This document shows, piece after piece, positions 2,620 through 62,100 of a stretch of DNA of 64,000 bases. Position 1 is the stretch's first letter; each line of letters starts with the position of its first letter. Source of the stretch: Callorhinchus milii (Eukaryota); the NCBI RefSeq assembly GCF_018977255.1, contig NW_024704742.1, forward strand, positions 81,098,001-81,162,000. The letters run 5' to 3'. Position numbers and translations under genes: made by a program. The notes beneath the pieces are model-generated. The model was not told the origin of the DNA and made no database searches. It worked only from the letters and a program-made list of their open reading frames with translations.

Positions 2620-2965
2620 CACTACAGGAGCTTATCACAAGCACTCACCTTGCAAGCAAAAGGACTTGGATTTGATTACCAGGCAGGGTGAAATGTTTGG
2701 CAAGTTTCCTTACTCCACACACTTCTGTTTACCTAGCAGTAAGTAGGACCCCAGTTGTTAATAGATTGGTGGATCGCTTTTCCGGGGGTAATAATGCCTT
2801 AAAAAATAATAACAATTTAGTCACTCAATCCACAATTGTTTTGGGACACTGCTGTGGACAATTGGCTGCTGTGTTTCGCCGAAAAATAGTTATTTCACAT
2901 TGCAGTGTATTCTGTGAAGCATTTTGATAAGGCACTCTATCAAATGCAAGGATTATTTTTATTAC
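2620..2965 (+). mobile_element. tRNA-derived SINE, long subfamily (extra internal segment)
   Basis: Same head and tail as the short subfamily, plus internal ctgtttacctagcagtaagtagg...ttggtggatcgcttttccggggg. Related copies at ~14752-14930 (+), ~23225-23535 (-) and ~62195-62443 (-). Confidence 0.8.
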
Positions 2966-2993
2966 TGTAAACCTCATTTAACCCCAGCAGGAG

Positions 2994-5715
2994 CAACAAT
3001 TACAACAACAAAATTACAGTTGTAAAGCGCTTTTCATGTCGGGAGGACTTCCCAAGGCAGTGGGGTATCAGGACCCGAGAGTAGGTGAGGAATGGCAGAG
3101 AGGTAAGAGGGTGGCTGAAGGCACGGTCAAAAAGGAAGGTTTTAAGTCGTGCCTTGAATGGACAAGGGAGGGAGAATGGCGAAGGGAATATGGGATGGAG
3201 TTCCAGAGGGTAGGGGCAGAGAGGCTGAAAGCCCGGCTGCTGATGGTAGAGCGGGTCGGGCGGGAGACACGGAGCAGGCTGAACGGAGGGAGAGGACAGA
3301 TTGATAGTGGGTCAGCAGGTCAGAGGTATAGGAGGGGGCACGACCATGGAGGGCCTTGAAAATGAGGACAAGGAATTTGAATTCTATCCTCTGAGGGATG
3401 GGAGTCAGTGGAGCCGGGCGAGGGTGGGGGTGATGGAGTCACAGAGCCTGGTGCAGGAGTGGACACAAGCTGCAGAATTTCTGGATGATCTGCAGCTTGT
3501 GGAGGGAACAGTTAGAGAGGCTGACAAGGAGGGAGTTTCCGTAGTCGAGCCTTGAGGTGACAAATGCGTGTATGAGGGATGAGGCAGGGTGGAGTCGGGC
3601 AATGTTGCGTGGGTCATGGATATGGGAGAGAAAGAACAATTGAGGGTCAAACAAGATGCCCAGATTCCTGACTGGCCGGTGAGGTGGAGTGTGCATCTAT
3701 GGATTCTGATGCTGACAGTGCCTGAGGTGCGGAGGCTCTGGCACGAGCCAATCAGGAGAACCTCGGTCTTGCTGACATTCAGCTGTAGAAAGTTGGCTCT
3801 CATCCAGGACTTGATGTCTGACAGACAGTCTGTCAGGACGTCAGTTGTCCTGGAATTGAGGGTGGAGGCAGAGAGATAGAGTTGGGTGTCATCTGGGTAA
3901 CTGTGGAAGTTGACCCCATGTTTGCAGATGATGTCACTAAGGGGGAGTTTGTAGAGGTTGAAGAGGAGGAGACTGAGGACAGAGCCCTGAGGATCACCAT
4001 ACAAGACTGTGCGTTGGCTGGAAGAGAAAGTGTTGGTAAAGACACATTGGAGACGGTGTGAGAGATAAAACCTGAACTATTCAAGGACAGAACCTTGCAG
4101 GTTGAGGTGAGAGGAGAGGCAGTGGAGGAGGATAGAGTGGTCCACGGTATTGAAGGCAGCAGAGAGGTCAAGGAGGACGAGAGACAGAGGGAGCCTTGGT
4201 CACAGTTAGACAGAATGTCATTTGTGACCTTGACCAGAGCAATTTCCGCTCTGTGAGCAGCACAGAAATCCAATTGGCGGAGCTTGTGAAGGGAGTGGAA
4301 TGAGCAAAGCTGGGAAGCAATGAGTCTTTCAAGGAACTTGGAAAGAATAGCGAGGTTGGAGATGGGCTGGTAGTTAGAAGGGAGGGATGGGTCCAGGGAA
4401 GGTTTTTCAGGATAGGAGTGATTGTAGCTGTTTTTCGGGGATGGGAACCCTGCTGGATCATAGGAAGAGATTGATGGTGTCAGAGATTAGAGTGGTGAGG
4501 CGGTGAAGCTGGGAGGAAAGGAGAGGGGTGGGGATATAATCAAGGGAGCAGGTGTTGTGTTTCATGCTGGATATGGTGGTGAAAAGATTAGGGGAGACAG
4601 GTTCGAAGATTTGGAGAGAGTGATGGGTAGGGGTCAGACTGTGGGGGAGATGGGGAGGGGGTGGTGGTTGAGAAGGCGGAGGCAGCTGAACGGATCCCCT
4701 CAATTTCGGACTCGAGGAAATACAGCATCTTCTCACAGTCAGACTTTGTGGAGAGAATAGGTGAGGCATGGGAGGGTAGACGGAGGAGCTGATTGGTAGT
4801 GGAGAAAAGGAGCTCGGGGTTATCCTTCACCTCAAAAATTATCTTGAAGTAGAAGGACGATTTGGCAGAGGCAAGTGCAGAGCGGTACGTTTTCATGTGG
4901 ATCAGGCAGATCTGCTGGTGGACAGTTAGATCAGATTTGAGCCAGGTGTGTTCGGTGGCCCGCACCTGACCCTTGAGGGAGCAGAGGTGGCTGTTGTACC
5001 AGGGTGAACTTTGTGAGTAAGAGGTAGTTCGGGAAGTGAGGGGGTCAAGGACATCAAGATTGGTGGAGAGGGAGTTGTGGAGGAGAGTGAGCAAGGAGGA
5101 TAAATCAGTGTGGGACATAGGCCAGATGGAGAGGAGTTCAGATGATTCCAGGGCAGCAGAGAGGATTGCGGGTAGACTTTTTTCCCTGGGCGGTAGGAGA
5201 TGGAGGTGGGTTTGGTGGCGATGGGGAGAGAGATTGAGGAGTTAAAGGAGATGAAATGGTGATCGGAGATGGCTTTGCTGTGATTGTGATATCCAAGCCA
5301 TTGAGCCCCAAGTAATCAACAGGTCAAGTGGGTGGCCATGAACGTGAGTGGCAGAGTGGATGTGGAGAGAAAAGTTGTGAGAGGAGATGAGAAAGGTGAA
5401 GACCAAGGAAATAAAGCAGGAGGGGGTGAAGTGAAGGTTGAAGTCGCCGAGGATGAGGAGGCGGTCAGAACAGAGGCAGAGGGAAGCTAGGAGGGTGGAG
5501 ATGTCAGAGATGAAGGTGGGGGATGTTTTTGCAGGGGCAATAAATGAGGAGAATTTTGAAGGAAAGATTGGCGGGATGGTAGAGGGTAAGGTGCTTGAAT
5601 GAGGGGAATAAGCCAGAGGAGTAAGGGATAAAGCAAGTGAGGTCCTGGAGATGAAGGCCACACCACCGCCATGATGGTTGGGACATGGGCTACAGTGGGA
5701 GCAGTCACCCTTCTG
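2994..5715 (-). mobile_element. L2-clade LINE, 5'-truncated and frameshifted ORF2 (APE endonuclease + reverse transcriptase) with 3' UTR and (GTT)n tail
   Basis: ORF fragments carry endonuclease motifs (HHGGGVAFI, LILGDFNLH, THVHGHPLDL), SPWYN, RT motifs ([21 protein letters not shown]) and [24 protein letters not shown]. The tail appears as caacaa repeats at ~2995-3010. Confidence 0.93.
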
Positions 5716-12269: not shown

Positions 12270-12760
12270 ATTTCCAGAAATCATACTGAAGCTGTACAGT
12301 GCTCTGGTAAAGCCACAGATAAGAGTACTGCATACAGTTCTGGTCGTCACAATATAAACGGGGTGCCTAGGCACTTGAGATGGTGCAGAGGAGAGCAACC
12401 AGGTTGATTCCCATTGTTAGAGGAAAGAGCTTTGAGCAACAATTGGTTTTTCATCAGATCTTGTGAAGACATGTACTTCCATCACAAAGGGTCTTTGCAG
12501 AAGGATCTTTGAGGAATGTGAACTAAACAGTTACAGCAAGGAATCACGCCATTCGGCTCAAATATTCCATGCTGGTGTTTATTCCACATGAGTCGCCACC
12601 CCTCCTATTCCCCTTTCTTATAAGCCATCTATTTCCTTCTCCCTCATGTGTGCATCAAGTTTCCTTTTAAATATGTCGGTGCTTTCAGGTTCAACTACAG
12701 CTTCCAGCAGTGCATTCCACATTCTCACCACCCGCTACGTGAAGAAGTTCCTCTTCTTCC
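12270..12760. mobile_element. CR1 fragments: ORF2 C-terminal piece (+, ~12270-12440) and 3' UTR (-, ~12530-12760)
   Basis: ctgtacagtgctctggtaaagccaca...cagttctggtc...gtgcagaggagagcaaccagg resembles LYxALVRPHLEY..QFWS..VQRRATR; the reversed UTR has gcattccacattctcaccaccc. Confidence 0.7.
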
Positions 12761-17278: not shown

Positions 17279-17712
17279 GTAATAATAATAATAAAAATAA
17301 TCCTTACATTCAAAATAGCAGCTTTCATGTCATCGAGATGTTTCAAAGTGCTTCACAGGATGCACTGTAAAGTGCAGTGACTATTTAGTGGGTGAATGGA
17401 GCAGCCAATATGTGCACAGCGATGTTCCACAAGCAGTTATGAAGTGAGCGACTAATTTTATTTGGGGGATTGTTGCATGAACTGGGAGAAACTCCTCTTT
17501 TTGAATGGTGTCATGGCATCTTTAACGCTCACCTGAACCGGCAGATGAGTTTAACATCTCATCTGGAAGAACCTCACTGCTGACAATGCAACACACCTTC
17601 AACACTGTGTTGGAGTGTCAGCTGAGACTATAAAAGTTGCAAATCCCGGTGTGCGCCTTGAACCCACACCTTCTGGCTCTGAGGCGAGAGTGTTCCCAAC
17701 TGAGCCAGGCTA
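17279..17712 (-). mobile_element. Old Deu-domain SINE (SacSINE1/DeuSINE-like)
   Basis: The reverse complement shows a tRNA-like head gcctggctcagttgggaacactctcgcctcagagccagaagg, then gctgacactcca..., gttcaggtgagcgttaaagatgccatgacacc (Deu-like), and the shared 3' tail. Confidence 0.75.
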
Positions 17713-20287
17713 ACAACAACAACAAAATTACATTTGTATACCAAATTTTAGATTTACTCTGTATAGCATTTTAGAGTATCCAGAATTTCGCACATTGTTT
17801 AAGTTGGTTTGCTGCATTCTTAAACGAAATTACAGAAAATCTGCTTCAAAATGAAGACTGAATTTAAGAATTTGGCAAAATTAGGCTATTTGATCTTATT
17901 CTTTCAGAATACCAACCTTATCAACAATCTGAAGCACTTTTGAGATGTTCTCCCAATGTGAAAGGTGCTATATAAATATACAATTCTTGTTACCATTTTG
18001 CCATTGTGGCATGAAATTAGTTACTATATGAGTGGAGTATTCTGGCCTCAACCACCCTTTCTGGCAACTCATTTCAGCTGTCGATTACCCAATATGTAAA
18101 GATATGGTGTACAGTGTATGTCTGGTGTATGTCGTAATGTTGCCACTTGCAATCCAGAACCCATTTGTACCTGAATATATCAATGTATTGTTCGGAGTTT
18201 ACTTTCTTTATCTCAATTAGCATCATAAAATTGGCGTGTTATCCGGTTATAATCTTGGCTTATAAACAGCCTTTTCTCTACAGTTGAACAACATCTTGAA
18301 ACAACTAAGGACTCATTCACAGAACATCAACAGTAAATGACTGATTATTAATACAGCCTTGGGGAATATTATAATAACATTGTGAAAATGAACAGTAGAT
18401 TAGCAAATACTGTATAAATAAATGTGCTAAATTTGAAATGGCTTAGACGAATTCATCCTTAAACATCCAAATTTATGGGAGTACATGGAAACTTAAGATA
18501 TTAATCCAGGCAATAGGTCAAACAAATAGATCAGTTATTCCCATTGAAGCAAAATTATTTCACAACTAGCATAATTTTCTTATGTTTGCCTTCACTTTAC
18601 TTTTCTTCAAGGCCTGGGTAATGGAACCGATCTAAATAAGTGATTTAATTTCTTCTGTACTGGAGTCCTCACACCTATTAACCCAATCCTTGTCCTCATC
18701 TTGAAATTGTTCCAACCAACCTCTGTAACGGCTTTGAAACATTATCCTACCTGAAAGCACGATTAGGCAAGTTACTATTGGAAAGGCGTGAGTTGTATTA
18801 TTCACTGGCAGAAGACCTGACAGTGTAAACAGAAACAGAATTCAATAAACCCGAAGAAAGGTGAATTGCTACGTAATCTCAACAACATTCACAAAACCAC
18901 ATTATTGCAATAATTGGGGATAAATCATCGTTATATCTTTGCAAGCCTCACAAAAGGAACATGTGTTAAAGTATTAGTGAAAGCATAGTGTTGAGTCAAG
19001 TAGACCAGTATTAGTGAAAGCATAGTGCAAGGTTAGTTCTCTGCTCAGGCCTGTATTAACTGATATCTCTCAAAGAAATGGTAATTGTGCCACAATTGGG
19101 TTTACCATACCTGATTTTCAGAGGGATTAGTATATGTCACTGCAAAAAAACTTAAAAAGAATAGGTCAGAATTCCTAGGATAGTCTCACCTTCAAAAACA
19201 TCTGCTCCAGGATTATGTGCTTTATCCCATTCAAACTTGTTTCTGACCAACTCCCTTCTGTTTCTTTCATATATGAATAGCTTTACTTTTACCCAATAGA
19301 TCCATTATGTTTTTTCAGCTGTTGTGCACTAAGTCTGTAACATCTATGGTTGCCTGGTTACATAGTATGCTGCCCTTCAGTGAATGTTGGAGCTGTTGCC
19401 TTGATTTGGGTGGAAGAATCATCATTGCCGACTTCATACACTATTCCTGACAATTACAAGACAAGCTTTTTTTTCTAAATGTTTCCTATGGTAACACACG
19501 TTAGCAGGTGAAAGGCCTGAATCTCCACCTGGTCTTATCTTATGTTTGCCTTCACTTTAGTGGATTATTTGAGATATCCTCCAGATATGAAAGGCACTAT
19601 ATCAAATGCAAGGATTATTATTAGGGTAATTTTGATTTAGATTATAAGATTACATGGACTTGTGAAAAAAAATCAATTTAGTCTAAATTTGCAATTCTTA
19701 GCACTATTGTAATAGAGATGGGGGTTTCTCTTGGTGTTTTGGCCAACAATCCTGACCAAATAAAATTGGTCATTTACTTCATAGCTGAATGTTGGAGCTC
19801 AATGCTGTTCATAAATTGGCTACCAGGTTCAACCATAAATATACAGTCACTACACTTTACAGTATATCCTATAAGGCGCTTTGAGCTATACCAAATCATT
19901 GATATAGTGTGAAAGGATGATTATTATTATTGTGCCCTATACCCCGCCCCCCACCCCACAGACCTTATCACAATGAGGTTTGTGCACCTAAGGTGGAGCT
20001 CAGTGTTTGAGTGCAATTGTTTTATATAAAGGAGCAGTCCAACGTAGATGAGTTCAGGATACCAAGACTAGTAATGGTCCATTTATTGAGCCCAGGTTTA
20101 ACTTTTTTATTGGTTAATCCATCCCTGTATTTGTGTCGAGAGAGCAACAGAAACCCGAGTTTAAAGTCTTGTAGTGATTGTTAGTCAGAGATTCATAGAA
20201 CGAACAGCTCAGAAACAAGCCACTCAGCCCACGGGGTCTGGCTGGTGTTTACACTTTGATGTCAGTTTTGTTGCAATGGTAATCCAA

Positions 20288-20572
20288 GTACTGAGGAGGA
20301 TTACTACTGCAATAACACATCATTGGTTGAGCAAAGCTAACCTGTATCATAACAGTCTAAACCCAGCTCACGATCCTATTAGTGAGCGAATAATCGAACG
20401 CTTTGTGAATTCTGCTTCACAATAATAGGAAGAGCCGACATTGAAGGATCAAAAAGCAACATTGCTATAAACCCTTGGCTACCACAAGCCAGTTATCCCT
20501 TTGGTAACTTTTCTGACACCTTCTGCTTAACGCCCAAAAAGCCAGAAGGATCATGAGGACACACTTTCATGG
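20288..20572 (-). pseudogene. Decayed fragment of 28S rRNA (domain V peptidyl-transferase region up to the sarcin-ricin loop); not a functional rRNA gene
   Basis: The reverse complement reads ...GGTGTCAGAAAAGTTACCAAAGGGATAACTGGCTTGTGG...TTTTTGATCCTTCAATGTCGGCTCTTCCTATTATTGTGAAGCAGAATTCAC...GTGAGCTGGGTTTAGAC...CTCAGTAC. This is the conserved eukaryotic LSU sequence with scattered substitutions; only about 285 nt are present. Confidence 0.93.
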
Positions 20573-20789
20573 CTCCAATGAAAACCAAATTGGTCATTCA
20601 CTCCATGGTTGTCTGTGGGACATTGCTGTGCGCAAACTTACTGCCGCATGTCACTCATAAAGTATATAGTCTACCACTTTACAGTATATCCATTTTTAGA
20701 TGTCTTGACATTATGATAAAGCTCTATATCAAATGCAAGGATTATTATTATTATGTCTATATTTATACTGAAAATCTTATCCCTCATTC

Positions 20790-21400
20790 CGTAGAATCGT
20801 AGAATATTACAGCACAGAAGGAGGCCATTCATCCCCTTGGTGCCTGCTCTTTGGAAGAGCTACCGAATCAATCCCACTCTCCCGCTCTTTTATTGTAGGC
20901 CTGCAAAAAAAATTCAAGTAGTACCTATCTAATTCCTTTTGAAAGTTATTTTCGAATCATATCCTGTCTTTTTCCCCATTTCACTCAAATTTATTCTCTC
21001 TTAACAATGTGTCCAGTCGTTTTTTTGAAGGTGCGCATGTTTGGCACTCTGACGACAACTGACTGTGGCAGAGAATTCCACACTCCCACCACTCTCTGTG
21101 GGTACAAGCTTCTCCTAATCGTGTTCTGGGCCTCCCAGTTCTGATTGAAAAACTATGCCCTCTCATTCTAGAACAACACAAGTAATCTTTCCCTGTTCCT
21201 CTTATCCTCATCCTCTCATTACTTTTTATGGCTCTATCATTTCCCCGCAGTCTTCTGAGCGTCAAAGAAAAACGGCCCAGTTTATCAAGCCTTTCCCTAT
21301 AACTGCATTTTCCCTCTGCATCACCTCCAATGCCTTAACATCTTTCCTATAACAAGGAGCCATAAATGCACACAGTATTTCAAATGTGGCCTTATCATCG
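20790..21400 (-). mobile_element. CR1-clade LINE 3' fragments
   Basis: tagaatattacagcacagaaggaggccattc is the reversed CR1 3' end; peptide RMRGHSFSI...HREWW resembles the CR1 ORF2 C-terminus (TRGH...FF..RVV..WN). Confidence 0.75.
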
Positions 21401-21826
21401 TTAATCCATCAAAGTACATTTAAAAGTGAGTGAGTTTATTGACCTGAGGTTTTCCCATTAGGTCAATGCTCACAGGTGTTCTTTTGGATATGTGTGTTTC
21501 CTACATTTTATGGGTTCTTTAACTTGCTCTTGTTTTTAAAATACGTTTTTTATACTTTCTGTGGCAGAAACGTATACGCTTTCTGTTTCTTAAAGCTGCC
21601 ATTTGTGGCACCAGTGCAGCGGAGTGAGAGCAGCAGTTATGTGCTCCCAGGCCCTGCCAGTGTCAATCAAAAAACAGCAACTGATCAAGTCCAGCTCAGC
21701 TTGGTAACTGCCCAGAGCAGAGACTCTCCACTTTAAACTGAAACCCAACCATTCTGGAACCTGGGTGTGCATGCAAGAGGCCAACTTTGTATTTGTTATC
21801 ACCACTGTGGCAGTGTCAAACTTGCA

Positions 21827-22149
21827 GTGGAGTCCTGTAGCTCAGTGGTCAGAGCACTTGCCTCTCAAGCGAGAGACCTGGCTTTGATTCCTGGCAGGAT
21901 GAAACCTTCGGCAAGTTTTCTTACTCCACACGCCTGATAATAATCCCTCAAGAAAAAAAANCAATAATAAAATTGGTCACTTCAATGCACAACTGTTTGT
22001 GGGACACTGCTGTGCGCAATTTGACTGCCGCATTTCACCCACAAATATGCAGTCAATTCACTTTACGGTATATTCTGTGAAACGCTTTGAGTTGTCTAGA
22101 AAACTTGAAAAGCGCTATATCAACTGCAAAGATTATTATTATTATTATT
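21827..22149 (+). mobile_element. Full-length tRNA-derived SINE (short subfamily)
   Basis: gtggagtcctgtagctcagtgg head through to the (att)n tail. Confidence 0.9.
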
Positions 22150-25579: not shown

Positions 25580-25896
25580 GTATATGAAAGATAAAGGCTT
25601 GAAGGGGTATGGAAATAGGGGGAGAGTCAGCAACATTGAATGGGCAAGTTGCTCTGAGAGCAAGTGCAGACTTAATGAGCTGAATAGCCAGCCGCCTTCC
25701 ACATTGTAAATTTCTTTGATATTAAAGAATGATATTGCACGGAACCAGCCATTTGAGGCCAATTAGTTCATGCTGGCACCACACCTCCTATACCCCTTTA
25801 TTCCCCTCTCCCTATATAGGTATTAATTTTCCTTTGAAATACTTTAATTCTTTATGCTTCAACCAAAACTTCAGGTGATGAGTTCCAAGTACTCAC
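25580..25896. mobile_element. Two CR1 3' UTR remnants tail to tail (+ then -)
   Basis: gaaggggtatgg...gagctgaatagcc...ttgtaaatttctttgat followed by a reversed copy. Other CR1 3' ends at ~27260-27475, ~30300-30520, ~43770-44110, ~45320-45545, ~46150-46345, ~52560-52840 and ~53110-53245. Confidence 0.65.
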
Positions 25897-26225
25897 GTGG
25901 AGTCCTGTAGCTCAGTGGTTAGAGCACTCGCTTTGCAAGCGAGAGACCTGAGTTCAATTCCAGGCAGAGGGCGAAACCTTGGGCAAGTTTCCTTACTCCA
26001 CACGCCTAATAATAACCCCTCCAAAACAAAAAACAATAATAAAATTGGTCATTTTCAATCTACGACTGTTTGTGGGACATTGCTGTGCGCAATTGGCTGC
26101 CGCGTTCGCCCACAAATATACAGTCAATTCACTTTACAGTGTGTTCTGTGAAGCGCTTTGGGACGTCTTTCCGACTTGAAAAGCGCTATATCAAATGCAA
26201 GGATTATTATTATTATTATTATTAT
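25897..26225 (+). mobile_element. Young full-length tRNA(Ala)-derived SINE (short subfamily) with L2-type tail and (ATT)n
   Basis: Pol III A box TAGCTCAGTGG and B box GAGTTCAATTCC; anticodon arm CTCGC-TTTGCAA-GCGAG; tail tgtgaagcgctttgggac...gaaaagcgctatatcaaatgcaagg(att)n; flanked by the direct repeat tactcac (25890-25896 and 26226-26232). Confidence 0.92.
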
Positions 26226-28560
26226 TACTCACTACCCTCAACTAAAAGATGGCCTTGTAAACTCTCTTTCTAATCTGCCCTTGTCTGTTTTATATTTATG
26301 CCCTTGCTTTGGACTCATTAACAAGTGGAAACAGCCTATTAATATTAATCTCATCTTATCCTTTCATGATCTTTTTGGGAAAAGGACCAGATTTGACAAT
26401 GTCCACTGAGTCACTCCCATTACAAGCACACGTTGCTAGGCCTGGTCATTTTTTCTCACAAGAGGAAATCTTTCCTCTCCCTGCCCCCTCCAAGTCTCTG
26501 CATTGTCTCTCCCATACCATGCACTGGAGTTGTGGGTTAAGTAAGGTTAAGTAAAGCAATTATTGCAGGCAACAAACGGACTCAGTAACTCTACTGTGCT
26601 GAGAGAAACGTGCAATTATGTTATCTGCCCTGATATCAAGTACTGGTGGGCTTCACTTCAGAGTGAAGGGAACATCTAAGGCACTTTCTGTGCCTTGAGA
26701 ATATTCCCAGAATCACCTTTGAACTCCATCCCACAGTCTCTCTGCCTCGCCCCCTCCCTTGCCTCCTTTGACCCATTTCAAAACCCTCTTCTTCGACCTT
26801 GCCTTCGTTCACCCTCCTTCCCCCATGCCCTTCACCCTCCCCATTTCCCCCCCAGCTCGAGTCTGAAACACTGATTGGCCAATGCTCAGGGACATCTTCC
26901 CAACATGAAAGGCGCTATGTCATGTGCTTTATTCACAAATATAATTTTTTTAAAATCTGTATCTTGCTGGATCTCCAGAGCTCAGAAAACAGAAATCAAT
27001 AATATATTTTGGCATTATTTTTGGAATCTATTTTGCATTATTTTATTGCTTTTTAATGTTCTGGATTCAGTGATTTATCAGGTGTTACAGTAGGGCCTTT
27101 TTTAAAAAGTACTGAGATTATCCAATTAGTTACAAAAGTGCTGCTTGAAGCTTTATCCAGAGAATCACAAGCCAGTAATAGAGTCATAGTAATAGGCATG
27201 CCCTGGTCAGGGAAGCACTGCAAATGATTACAAGAATTTAGAGCAACTATGGGGAATGATCAAAGAGGGAGATAGGATGTGGAATGTCCTACCTGAACCA
27301 TGGTTAAGGTACAATTCGTATTAGCTTTTAAAAGGGAATTAGTTAAATATCTGAACATGTGAAATATAAGAAAAGCTACGTGGAAAAGGCAGGAGAATGG
27401 GACTAAATAATTAGCTCTAGCAGAGTGTCAACATGGGCACAATGACCTTCTTCTGTGCTGTTAATTCTATGAAGCGTTGTGCTTAGTTCTAACCCAAACA
27501 TTGAGGCTTCTCATGTGCATGACACTGGAAAGGAGGATGTCTCTTAATACAGCTGGCTTTGAGGGGCTGGGGGTGGGGGGGGGAGCTGAAGAGGGTGGGG
27601 GAAGGAAAAGACGACAGAAAGTGCAGTTAAAAAGGTAACTCCAGAAGGACTTCAGGATGGAGTACCAGAGAGTTGGGTCAGAATGGCTTGCTCACTCATG
27701 GTGGGAACGGTAGGGTGAGGGCATGAAACAGACCGATGTTCACTAAACACAATATGGAAGTCAATTTAAGGTGGTGTTGAGCATTGCAAGTCAGTGTATT
27801 GAGGGACGTGGAACCCTGCTTTCTTCCAGCTGTACTTTTCAATGCTGAAAATGGAAGTGGCAGCACAGTCTAAATATACATGCTTAGTCTGTCTGATTCT
27901 GGGCGATTTTGTGTAAACAGCTGTAACAATGAGCCCAATGCTTTACTGAAGAAAAGGTGGAAGGAAAACTGTTGCATTGAGTGAAATGTGAACAGATTTC
28001 TTTTGGTTTCTCCTCTGTCATGTTATATACATGGTAAAGTCCTGCTTGATAATGCAATGATAATAATAATCTTTGGATTTGATATAGAACCTTATCACGT
28101 TTTCGAGACATCTTAAAGCGTTTCACAGAATATACTGTAAAGTGAATTAACTGTATATTTTGTCAGCAGCCATTTGCACATAGCAGTGTCCCACAAACAG
28201 TCGTCGATTGATCGACCGTATTATTATCATAATTATTATTATTATGACTAGTATAATGGATTAGGAAGAAAACTGAAGCAACATTTAGTTTTCCCCATAT
28301 TGCTTTAACCCTTTTATTTAGTGTCACAGAATGAACTCACTGTTGACTTGAATAATAAAACATGCTTTGTTCGAGTTTCCCAATGATTTGTACGTCAGAG
28401 AAAATCTAAATTTTCAACGGTTAAATATTTTGAATTTCTTCGATTGAAAAAAGTCTCATAACTTTTTTGTGCATATGAGGACAAAACAAAGGCCATTAAA
28501 AATACCTCTAATAGGAAGCCAGTCAACTTCAGATTTAATATCTCTTATCTTTCTTCGCAG

Positions 28561-28641
28561 GAGAAAAGGCGGAGACAAGCAGAAATTGAAGACAAGAGGC
28601 ATCAGCTCGAGGATAAAATACTTCAGCTGCAGCATCACAAG
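28561..28641 (+). CDS. PALM2: Paralemmin-2 coding exon B (81 nt, phase 0/0), EKRRRQAEIEDKRHQLEDKILQLQHHK
   Basis: Acceptor tctttcttcgcag ends at 28560; donor gtagga at 28642; in frame with exon A; matches the paralemmin coiled-coil EKRKRQxEIExKRxQL. Confidence 0.95.
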
Positions 28642-31910: not shown

Positions 31911-33221
31911 AGGATATCCTTTCTCCATGTGAAGCTGCTTCCCAGTATAATACAGATTACTTTGCATCTACTTACATCGTTGCAGATGCAGTGTATAGAA
32001 AGAACAGACAGACAAGAGGCAGGCAGACCACGAGAGAGAGTAAATCAGGCCAGGAGAGTAAATCAGGCTTACAGTCACAGGCCTCAATATGGACTATAGG
32101 CAGATCAACTTGTTTCCCAGTGAGAGAATAAATAAAACCTGCAAAGAAAGGCTTCCCTACGGACTGTGTATTAATTCAGTTTGTTAGAAAGTGAACTTTT
32201 TACAAAAACTAACCTCATTATGCATTGGCATTTGACCAGCCTGTTGAACAAATGGCTTTCACATTCCTTGAGTCTGATGTTCCACCTCCTCTTAGCCTGT
32301 TGGGACCACTTTGTCTTAAAATTTAATATCGCACCGAAGGGTGAAAAATTCCAAACTTCAGTTTTAATTTGGAAGCTGGTTCTTATTAAGATTTGCAGAA
32401 AACTTTGCTTCCAAATGAAACTTGAGAAGAGGAATTTTTCACAATTTTAAAACTTTAAGAATTTAAAATTCAAAATGGTCTCAAGGCTGTGAAATTTTAG
32501 GATAATGTCTTGGAGCACTTCCCAATAGTGCTGTCGGAAGAGATGAAGGGTGAGATAACGTAGGTGTGGTAAAAGAGAGGTTTTCAAGACATATAGAGAA
32601 GGACTGAGATGGAGGGTGGAAAGGAAGGAAGTTCCAGAGGTTTGGGCACTGTAGCTGAAGAATAGGGGCATGGAGAGGGCAGCAAACCCAAAATAGTGAA
32701 GCAGAGGGGCGATCACAGGAGTGGGGTAGATAAGCTCAGATACGCAGAGGTAGTAGGGTAATGGTGGACAACCATTTAGGTCGGCCAACAAAATCAAGTT
32801 TGTTCATTGAATATTTTTGGATTTATGCCTTAAAACTATTGATTCAACACAATTTACCAGGACTTTTGTGAATGTTTCGCTTGTTGACGTCGATATAGGC
32901 TACTTCCAGCCTGTGGGCCAAGGATTGACCACCACTGAGCGAGGGCATGGAGGGATTATAGGCGAGGACTGGAATAATGGGCATGCAAAGTTTGGTGAAG
33001 GTATTAGACCATTTAAGATGGTGAGGAATTGTGGAAATTTCTTAAATTCTATCTTAATTGAGAAGTCAGCTTCTTTTGAAAAATTGCAGAAAAATAGCTT
33101 TTAAGTTCAGTCTGAATTTAAGAATGTTTGACAGTTTTGCCCCATGTTAAATATTAAGACAAAACATTGCAGATGTCTGGAATTTCAAACCTCAGATCAC
33201 TATCTGTGGTCTTTAGCTTGA

Positions 33222-49060: not shown

Positions 49061-49782
49061 TCTCCCCCACATCCACGCCATGACCAACACTGCCTACCAC
49101 CACCTCCGCAACATTGCCAGACTCCGCCACTGCCTCATCCCTCATGCTGCCGAAACCCTGCCGAAACCCTCATCCATGCATTCGTCACATCAAGGCTCGA
49201 TTATGGAAATTCCCTCCTCATCGGACTTCCCAACTCTTCCCTTCGCAAACTGCAGATCATCTAAAACTCTGCAGCTCATGTACTCTCGCGCACCAGGCGC
49301 CGTGACCCCATCACTCCCACCCTCGCACAACTCGACTGGCTCCCCATCCCTCAGAGGATTGAATTCAAGATCCTCATCCTCACTTTCAAGGCCATCCATG
49401 GTCTTGCCCCCTCCTACCTCTCTGACCTGCTGACTCCCTATCAACTTGCCCACTCCCTCCGTTCAGCGGGCTCCGGTCTGCTCCATGTCTTACGCCCGAC
49501 CCGCCCTACCATCGGTGGTCGGGCTTTCAGCCTCTCTGCTCCCACACTCTGGAACTCCATCCCACAGTCCCTTCACCTCGCTTCCTCCCTTGCCTCCTTC
49601 AAGGTCGGTCTCAAGACCCTCCTCTTCGATCGTGCCTTCTTTCGCCCTCCCACCTCTCTGCCTTCCCTCACTCCTACCCCACCCCTCCCCCATGCTCGGG
49701 TCCTGACCCCTGACTGTCCAGCACCTTGAGACGTCCTCCCGATGTGAAGGGCGCTCTATAAATGTAATTTTGTTGTTGTTGT
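49061..49782 (+). mobile_element. L2 LINE 3' part (ORF2 C-terminus, 3' UTR, (GTT)n tail)
   Basis: HHLRNIARLR and [15 protein letters not shown]; ends gcaccttgagacgtcctcccgatgtgaagggcgctctataaatgtaattttgttgttgttg. Confidence 0.92.
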
Positions 49783-59183: not shown

Positions 59184-62100
59184 ACAATAAACCTACTAAC
59201 CTATTAATGATGCCCAGAGTTTTAACTATTTTCACATTTATCCTGTCACTTTTCCTGCAGATGATTTATCTACCCTCAGTCAGTTACAAAAAAATCTCAT
59301 TCGTTCCATATCGCTCCATTGTCCCTCAAACAGATCATTTATTTCCTGATTATCAAAATGCTGCTTGCTCATTTCAAATTGTGAGAGATGTTGCTTTGCT
59401 TTGGTTTATTTCCCACCAAAATTCACCCAAAACATTCCAATTTGTGGGATGATCAATCTCATTGCACTCTGTGGCATGTTGCTGACATGAATTAGCTGTT
59501 GGGTTTGCCTACTTAAGTCACTCCACCACAAAGTAACTTACTGTGAGAAGCACTTTGAAATATTTAGACAAATTCCACCCAGATCTCAATTGACTATTTG
59601 TGAAGAATGTTACAGCCTAAAAGGTTCTTAAACAACTTAATTTTGAAGCCATTTTTCTGTAAGTTCTTTAAAGAACTACCCATAAACAACTTTAAGTTGT
59701 GACTGAATTCAACAACTTTTCAATTGTTGGTTGGTTTAAAATGTTGCATAAATAGAATAAACTTAGACCCAGGGGTAATTTCTCCCAAAGATGCTATGTT
59801 ATGTGCAAATATTCATTCCAGTAGTAGAAGTCTTCTACCCTTTTTNAAATTTCTCATCTCGAACTGTTTGGAGGGAAAAGTAAAATGCTTCCATCTCTCT
59901 GGCCTGATAGAAATGATGAGTTGATCGCCACTGGTACGATTTCAACAGAGAATTCGGGAGAAACTCTCTTCTCTCTTTGAGTAGTGCCATGGGACCTTTA
60001 AGTCCACTTGAACAACTGACTAATAATAACATAATAATCCTTGCATTTGATATAGTCCTTTCAAGACGTCTCAAAGCGCTTCACCGAATACACTGTAAAG
60101 TGAATTCACTGTATATTTTGTTGCGAAACGCAGCAGCCAATTGTGACCAGCAGTGTCCCACAATCAGTCGTCTATTCAGTGACCAATTTTTATTATTTAT
60201 TTTTATTTCTTAGACTTTGGTCAATGTCTCATCTGAAAGATGGCACCAGTGCAGCACATCCCCAGAACTGCATTGGAACATCAGCCTAGATTAAATCTTG
60301 GTAAGCTTCTAACGGAAAACGTTGAGAAGGAGAGACACAGACAGATCGAGGAAGAGAAAGGTTAATATTGGTGTTGTGAATAAGAGAGAGAGAAATAGCT
60401 ATAACAAGAATGTCCCATAGGTTGCTATATAATTGACCTAGATTTTGAATGGATCAGTGAGTGGAATTCCCTTAAATATTTTAGCAAAATTGTTTGGAGT
60501 TGGAAGGATAAAACCATTAATAACTCACAGTGACATGCTCTTTCGAACTTAAATGAATTGTTAATGATCTCCAAACGTTAAACATGTTAGCAGCTCTTTC
60601 AGCGTTTTTACACTGAGATCTTTCTCAGTATGCCACAGACTATCTGTCTAATATCATTACTTTAAATTTGTGACCACAATTGTAACATAAATTGAGAAAG
60701 AAAATAATAGTTCATATTACAAGGAGAGATTTGAAAGCTACATTTATTTTACTAGTAAGAAGATTAAGAGGGATATATTACAGCCCTCTGAGACGCTATC
60801 CTGGATGAAGAGCCCTATATAAATGCAACTTGTGATCCGAGCCATCAGCTGATTTTTCTCCAAGGCACAGTTTGCAATTTAGTCCACTGCTCATTGCACA
60901 GCAGCAGGGTTTCTGCCTCCAGTCTTTTTAGTTTCTTTTTGTCCTTCTTCAGTTGAGTGACGGTACCATTGCTGAAGGCTTGAAATTCTCCCAGCTCCTG
61001 CTGGTAACCCTCCAGGATTGCGAGTGACTGAGCTCGTTCTTCAAGCTGTTTGGCCAATTCACTAAACTTACTCCTTCCATCAATAAAACCTTTAAGGCAG
61101 TGATATCCAACATCTTTGGTTTGCCACAAAATAAAAGTTTCTTGATTGAATATTTCTTCATTTATGCCAACGGTAGGCAACCTTTCTAGTTTGAATATTT
61201 CTTGATTTAAGGCATAAATCTATGCTATTTTGTTATTTTTAGAATTAATGACCACTACTTTAAAGCTTTAATTTGGGACTACGCTACTTCAAGAAGCTTT
61301 TTTATGTTTGTCAACTTCTTTCTTTGTTGACGCTCCTCGTCCCAGCTTCCTGTGATTCTAAGATTTGTATTTCCACTTGTTTGGTACGTGACGGATAAGT
61401 CTCCACTGGAGCCAACAGATTTTTTCCTATAGACAGCTGGTCTTGTTGTTGAATAGTTTGCATTCCCACTGACTGATAGAGTCAGAAATTTAACATTGGC
61501 CTGTTCTAGTTTTGGTCCTGAGAGCTTCATTGCCCTTGGACAACCCTGAGTCTATATTCCATGAATTCGCTGTCAAAAAAAANTCAAAAGTAACAAAATT
61601 GGGGGAGGTGGACTGTGAAATACTTACCAAATTCCATATGAATATCTTCTGGCACAAACATTTTCACTTTAACAGAATAAAATATTTAATTATTCCTCAT
61701 TGACAGGTGGTGTTCAGAGCAGTGTTATTTTCTGATGTAGTCTATCTTTTGTGAGGTTTTTAACACCAGAGCTAATAAACAACTAGTAGATTTTGTTGTT
61801 AGCAAACTACAGGCTACTGTTCAAGGCATCATCATGACAGATGTGCTGCAACATTTGTTTGTGTGTTTCCTATTATCTCAGAGAAAAAGTATTGTTTTGC
61901 AAGCAAACCACATGTTGGTAAAATTTTCCATTTGTTTTATTACTTCGATTCTTTTATTTATCACTATTAAAGTCTGTGTATACAATTTATATTATTTTAG
62001 TATTTGGAATTGAAAGCTTTTTTTTCATTAGAAAAGGAACTGGTGAAAATGTTGCTATTGTAACATACACTTGGAATTGGGAGTGAGGAAGGCCTCTGTG

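Follow-up and report, generated by a model that had tools for sequence, protein, structure and literature searches.

A decayed 28S rRNA fragment, an inverted arm and a CR1 tail as the possible product of a single reverse transcription event

In the 64-kb stretch of DNA analysed (hereafter the window), a fragment of 28S rRNA was found to be followed by a short inverted copy of its own 3' end and then by the tail of a CR1-type LINE (Table 1). The best explanation for this arrangement, in which we place about as much belief as doubt, is that all three parts were formed by one CR1 reverse transcription event, during which the enzyme jumped templates onto a folded-back 28S fragment. The product was probably a single accident that left one dead copy, the count being based on one copy in 64 kb. 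The initial annotation had described the locus as either a one-off template-switch chimera or a member of an undescribed SINE family; the former is retained here as the best reading, while the latter received no support from the features that could be tested.

Table 1. Features identified at and around the 28S-CR1 junction (positions are those of the window)
Feature	Position	Strand	Basis and remarks
CR1 tail: final ~66 nt of the 3' UTR of a CR1-type LINE; two terminal octamers, of which one is exact and the other decayed	20185..20251	-	Profiles, alignment, octamer
Inverted arm: 29 nt repeating the 3' end of the 28S piece in inverted orientation	20257..20285	-	Pairing, shuffles, match to outside locus L001; may reach ~20250
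28S piece: decayed internal 28S rRNA fragment	20288..20575	-	Rfam RF02543; end point via L001 and the Rfam consensus
SINE: 5'-truncated copy of the common SINE of the window, with (ATT)n end	20576..20754	+	Profile; 17-18% from the family consensus
Spacer of 31 nt	20755..20785		Slight resemblance, below significance, to a CR1 3' UTR that would continue the tail
CR1 3' fragment separate from the tail above, comprising a decayed ORF2 end and a complete tail	20786..21420	-	Profile matches, alignment

In such an event, a CR1 enzyme would have primed at a nick near position 20185 and, having copied the terminal ~66 nt of a CR1 RNA, jumped to a 28S fragment at its 3' end, this fragment having previously folded back and been extended on itself by ~29 nt. 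Copying would then have proceeded through the short arm and the loop into ~290 nt of rRNA, with the end of the cDNA being joined inside an older SINE and the head of that SINE being removed in the process. Joining at such a position would account for the missing SINE head as well as for the absence of a long duplication. The resulting chimera would be promoterless and would not move again. LINE-1 ORF2p has been described to extend RNA hairpins, to copy DNA and to jump between templates (PMC10830420), the biochemistry cited here being that of the LINE-1 and R2 enzymes rather than of CR1. Among LINEs that require their own tail, RNA retrocopies have been described as chimeras carrying a short LINE tail, with duplications of 1-9 bp (PMC4476161).

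The 28S piece was identified on the minus strand by a match to Rfam model RF02543 (166.7 bits at 20497-20339), and a second comparison with Rfam gave 199.7 bits (E 5.7e-52) over an aligned block from ~20575 to 20321. Its other end, at 20288, was reached using an outside 28S-like locus, L001, with which it shares 33 of 36 positions. The ~285 nt of sense 28S initially annotated from 20572 to 20288 were thus confirmed, with limits of 20575-20288. The piece is 288 nt in length and corresponds to model positions ~2747-3035 of 3401, ending ~365 model positions from the 3' end of 28S. It spans what we take to be the peptidyl-transferase region, and its 3' limit falls just short of a GAGA loop, presumably the sarcin-ricin loop. 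Comparison with the Rfam consensus showed 19 substitutions and one gap in 160 positions (counted by eye), six of the substitutions being transitions of the CpG type. Decay of this extent (~12%) together with the CpG-type changes points to the piece being an old, dead copy.

L001 is one of three outside 28S-like loci (L001-L003) obtained from a metagenome scan, all of them short or decayed, with L002 and L003 being decayed 28S copies themselves. A viral scan for an outside 28S reference returned no loci, and five further loci from a genome scan (L004-L008) were discarded as chance, motif-only matches. L002 (MDSQ01132606.1) was found to be a decayed 28S piece lying in unrelated DNA and ending at ~390-395 of that locus, within 2-3 nt of the position at which the piece in the window stops. 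This break point was seen in one of the three outside loci, with L001 and L003 reading through it. As these loci were chosen by a motif just upstream, the stop in L002 does no more than hint at a recurrent 28S break point.

The initial annotation had also reported a ~30-nt inverted copy of the 28S end at 20285 to 20257, and this was borne out. The arms at 20265-20285 and 20298-20318 are complementary at 17 of 21 positions; when the pairing was scored against the final 58 nt of the 28S piece, 3 of 5000 shuffles did as well (P=0.008 against the whole piece, 2000 shuffles). Read on the plus strand, the inverted arm is sense 28S. It matched L001 as far as 20257, with 24 of 28 identities and a score of 35 that was reached in none of 5000 shuffles, and it scored 32 against L002 and 31 against L003, compared to 26 (17/21) against its own sense arm; the pattern used to retrieve the three loci combined both arms and so biases them toward a match with the inverted arm. 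Bases common to L001-L003 were found to be kept by the inverted arm where the sense arm had changed. The greater closeness of the inverted arm to the outside loci than to its own sense arm suggests that it was copied before the sense arm decayed and that it is likely to be of early origin. An alternative identity for the arm, as native downstream 28S sequence, was rejected (P=0.25-0.47). The decay of the inverted arm and of the 28S piece is about equal, at 12-14%, these divergences resting on 28-160 positions.

Between the arms, the loop consists of sense 28S that runs on without a break into the long arm, as would be expected had the template been read from the CR1 side. Two bases at the junction differ from the native 28S continuation. 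A present-day hairpin formed by the arms would be weak (-10.5 kcal/mol, with 17 of 200 shuffles equally good), and matches to microRNA families in Rfam had an E of about 2. Either self-priming of the RNA or a snap-back while this same insertion was being repaired may have produced the arm. In the 50 nt around the break, a self-priming hairpin was not the predicted fold of L001 (z=0.45), for which reason snap-back during repair is kept as an alternative for the arm.

The CR1 tail was identified using profiles from which the tail itself had been left out. A profile built from six other CR1-type ends of the window matched 20250-20188 (E 2.3e-4) and one built from eleven such ends matched 20264-20194 (E 9.8e-5), compared to a best match of E 5.9 or worse in the reversed window, which served as a control. 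Three of the training copies have upstream what we take to be an ORF2 C-terminal motif, and the label CR1 for these LINE ends is likewise our assumption. A Pfam search with the ORF2-like stretch of CR1-type copies returned no family. The tail ends in an exact TTCTRTGA octamer, as defined in PMC2612034, at 20200-20193, together with a decayed second unit; this octamer occurs 21 times in the whole 64-kb window. Judging from the profile matches and the terminal octamer, the tail is the 3' end of a CR1-type LINE with its terminus intact, in agreement with the ~65 nt of CR1 3' UTR end initially described. The likeness that had been noted to the CR1 end at ~12530-12585 holds for an 11-nt word that the two have in common but not for the pairwise score, which at 33.5 was not above chance (null maxima of 30.5-38.5 in 12 shuffles). 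For the age of the tail, no matching subfamily consensus was found, and the tail lies 30% from a mixed consensus.

Several features of the layout speak for a single CR1 event. The 28S piece and the CR1 tail share the same orientation, with the 28S sequence lying 5' of a 5'-truncated LINE end and with the 29-nt inverted arm between them. Only ~66 nt of the CR1 element are present, cut right at the junction. The chance of a rightly oriented CR1 5' end falling within 10 nt of a given point is ~0.002, a figure computed after the fact from the density of 13 CR1 ends in the window. Against a single event, no target-site duplication was found around the unit of 28S piece, fold-back and tail (anchored test, P=0.96; the free test was also null), and duplications sought for five, then four, unit definitions gave none above chance. 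The absent duplication says little, because the copy is old, because U6/L2 chimeras carry duplications of only 1-9 bp and because none of the seven young full-length SINE copies in the window was seen by eye to have an evident long duplication.

On its other side, the 28S piece directly adjoins at its 5' end the cut 5' end of a SINE that the initial annotation had not reported, this junction being as tight as that on the CR1 side. In the region from 19933 to 20581, which includes the far side of the CR1 tail, the head of this SINE gave no profile match with an E of 1 or less. An abutting headless SINE opens two rival explanations in which the CR1 tail lies outside the 28S event. In the first, which we regard as unlikely, a 28S retrocopy and a CR1 element were inserted separately, after which a double-strand break removed the DNA between them and snap-back repair made the inverted arm. 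Such a pile-up would not be out of place in this window, in which ~23.7 kb of the 64 kb were masked as repeats and most of the SINE and CR1 copies are fragments; furthermore, no duplication joins the parts, and the missing SINE head already demands a truncation or a deletion. Set against this, the inverted arm is free of the changes in the sense arm and would place the repair soon after the 28S insertion, a tail-less rRNA retrocopy would be a rarity in a setting in which LINEs depend on a tail of their own (PMC4476161), and a greater number of separate events would be required than for one CR1 event.

The second explanation, slightly less credible again, is that the 28S sequence came with the SINE, which would have inserted into an older, short CR1 element, with the other broken DNA end priming on the folded 28S fragment (twin priming) and giving the truncated SINE an antisense 28S head. 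Inverted snRNA/LINE-1 chimeras formed by twin priming have been described (PMC4476161), and the contact between the cut SINE end and the 28S piece is in keeping with this explanation. The best of the four duplication-like matches tested was also that surrounding fold-back, 28S piece and SINE, a loose direct repeat at 20237-20255 and 20752-20769 (P 0.10-0.12), and the spacer beyond the SINE, when joined to the tail, was better than random against two of four CR1 ends (P 0.04 and 0.05). Neither the repeat nor the spacer signal survives multiple tests, however, and the profile versions of the comparison of spacer plus tail with a CR1 3' UTR gave P 0.14-0.52. A long duplication would also be at odds with the young full-length SINEs described above (0 of 7), and 83% of primate 28S chimeras are in the sense orientation (bioRxiv 10.1101/2025.02.02.635956). 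In addition, the SINE, at 17-18% decay compared to 12-14% for the 28S piece and arm, appears to be slightly older than the 28S piece, these values being based on small counts.

A multi-copy family of 28S-headed, CR1-tailed SINEs, its master carrying the fold-back and relying on an outside promoter, is improbable. No second 28S piece was found in the 64-kb window by Rfam and motif searches, in contrast to ~60 pieces of its common SINEs. Scanning the sense strand of the chimera with motifs that we assume to be those of Pol III A and B boxes identified no A box, no B box and two T5 runs, whereas in the controls an A box was found in two of two SINE heads and a B box in one of two. The layout of a head plus LINE tail with an intact 3' end is that expected of such a family, and 28S-headed SINEs have been proposed in mammals (PMC4994717) and in the budgerigar (MeloSINE, PMC4844689), but, in contrast to SINE28 and MeloSINE, the piece described here stops well short of the 3' end of 28S. 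SINEU is a family that exists without Pol III boxes (PMC4494074), and high copy number with nearly identical structure has been used to separate a SINE from chimeric copies (PMC5786205). On a count based on the 64-kb window, a one-off is likely to be the better description than a new mobile family. A bolder version would make the chimera one copy of a cartilaginous-fish retroposon family, hitherto undescribed, that combines a 28S catalytic-core head with a fixed fold-back and a CR1 tail, and whose founder RNA broke at the sarcin-ricin loop, self-primed and was captured by a CR1 enzyme; it is given the least credence of all the explanations considered.

Read as the product of one CR1 event, the chimera belongs to an already described class, that of RNA/LINE chimeric retrocopies. 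The nearest likeness is to the 28S/LINE-1 chimeras of primates (n=18, median 269 nt, 83% sense), for which template switching or RNA ligation has been proposed (bioRxiv 10.1101/2025.02.02.635956). Both consist of an internal 28S fragment (288 nt here) in sense orientation, situated 5' of a truncated LINE end. Differences are the nature of the tail (CR1 here, LINE-1 in primates), the absence of a duplication here, and the position of the fragment, which by model position lies further 3' than the region favoured in primates (3636-4115 of 5035 nt). An inverted arm is present at the junction here, with no mention of one for the primate 28S chimeras in the sections of that source drawn on. U6/L2, U6/SINE and U6/RTE chimeras are described from platypus and anole, along with one unresolved U6/CR1 case from turkey (PMC4476161). 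These too have a truncated cellular RNA upstream of a short non-LINE-1 tail and small or no duplications; the donor here is rRNA, and an inverted arm is added.

SINE28 (PMC4994717) and MeloSINE (PMC4844689) resemble the chimera in having a 28S-derived head on a retroposed unit. Both are multi-copy and use the 3' portion of 28S, with the SINE28 loci shown ending at or near 5034 of 5035 (PMC4994717), whereas the piece here is internal and present as one copy in the window. SINE28 possesses A-rich tails and duplications and MeloSINE an RTE-derived tail, compared to the inverted arm, CR1 tail and lack of a duplication here. Assignment of the chimera to SINE28 was rejected on account of the model positions of its head (~2747-3035 of 3401), the absence of an A-rich or simple-repeat tail and the absence of a duplication. 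Snap-back junctions of R2 (PMC11371274) are similar in that a short antisense copy is found at the junction of a non-LTR insertion. In R2, the copy is made from the 3' end of first-strand cDNA at the 5' junction, whereas the inversion here is internal, at the 3' end of the rRNA piece, and therefore cannot be the snap-back step of R2. No 28S-headed, CR1-tailed element in cartilaginous fish was found in the literature searched (Dfam and Repbase being outside its scope), and the sections of PMC13343379 drawn on contain nothing on elements of this kind.

If the chimera is a one-off, all that it indicates is that the accidental copying of abundant cellular RNAs, as by the LINE-1 and L2 enzymes, likely extends to the CR1 enzyme. 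Accidental RNA copies of this kind provide the raw material for new SINEs, but no function is evident for them. What is unusual about the chimera is confined to the inverted arm, and should such arms recur at other rRNA retrocopies that end at the same loop, they would be genomic evidence that broken rRNA primes its own reverse transcription in the germ line. Should the junction prove to be multi-copy, it would represent a new type of 28S-headed SINE, for which the literature searched offers no earlier example with a CR1 tail.

Several other elements of the window were recorded. Two SINE families were identified, a young tRNA-headed one of ~325 nt (3-7% from consensus) and an older one of ~450 nt (15-20%), which have one ~185-nt 3' part in common (e.g. 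21827-22149 on the plus strand and 17282-17715 on the minus strand). The last ~55 nt of this common part are matched in turn by LINE fragment ends, for example that at 49714-49767. Two old CR1 3' ends, at 25580-25735 (+) and 25712-25896 (-), lie tail to tail with ~20 nt of overlap and directly adjoin a young SINE at 25894-26220. A 124-aa open frame with coiled-coil-like composition and no Pfam family was found at 60848-61219 (-), part of it (61093-61168) being repeated at 32754-32829, and it is possibly a decayed transposon ORF.

An N-terminal exon of the Paralemmin family was identified at 28558-28641 on the plus strand (PF03285, E 7.5e-9), this being the sole match above the curated cut-off among the 120 of 163 non-repeat frames that were scanned and the only sign of a host gene detected in the window. 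As this exon lies 8 kb from the 28S-CR1 locus, the latter is probably intronic to or upstream of a Paralemmin gene, and antisense to it. Among 14 indexed runs, six contained next to none of the 307 words sampled from 18500-21500 and four had small word shares, which are no evidence, while four large contig sets (four samples of one study) contained 0.65-0.73 of these words, indicating that the region exists in sequencing data.
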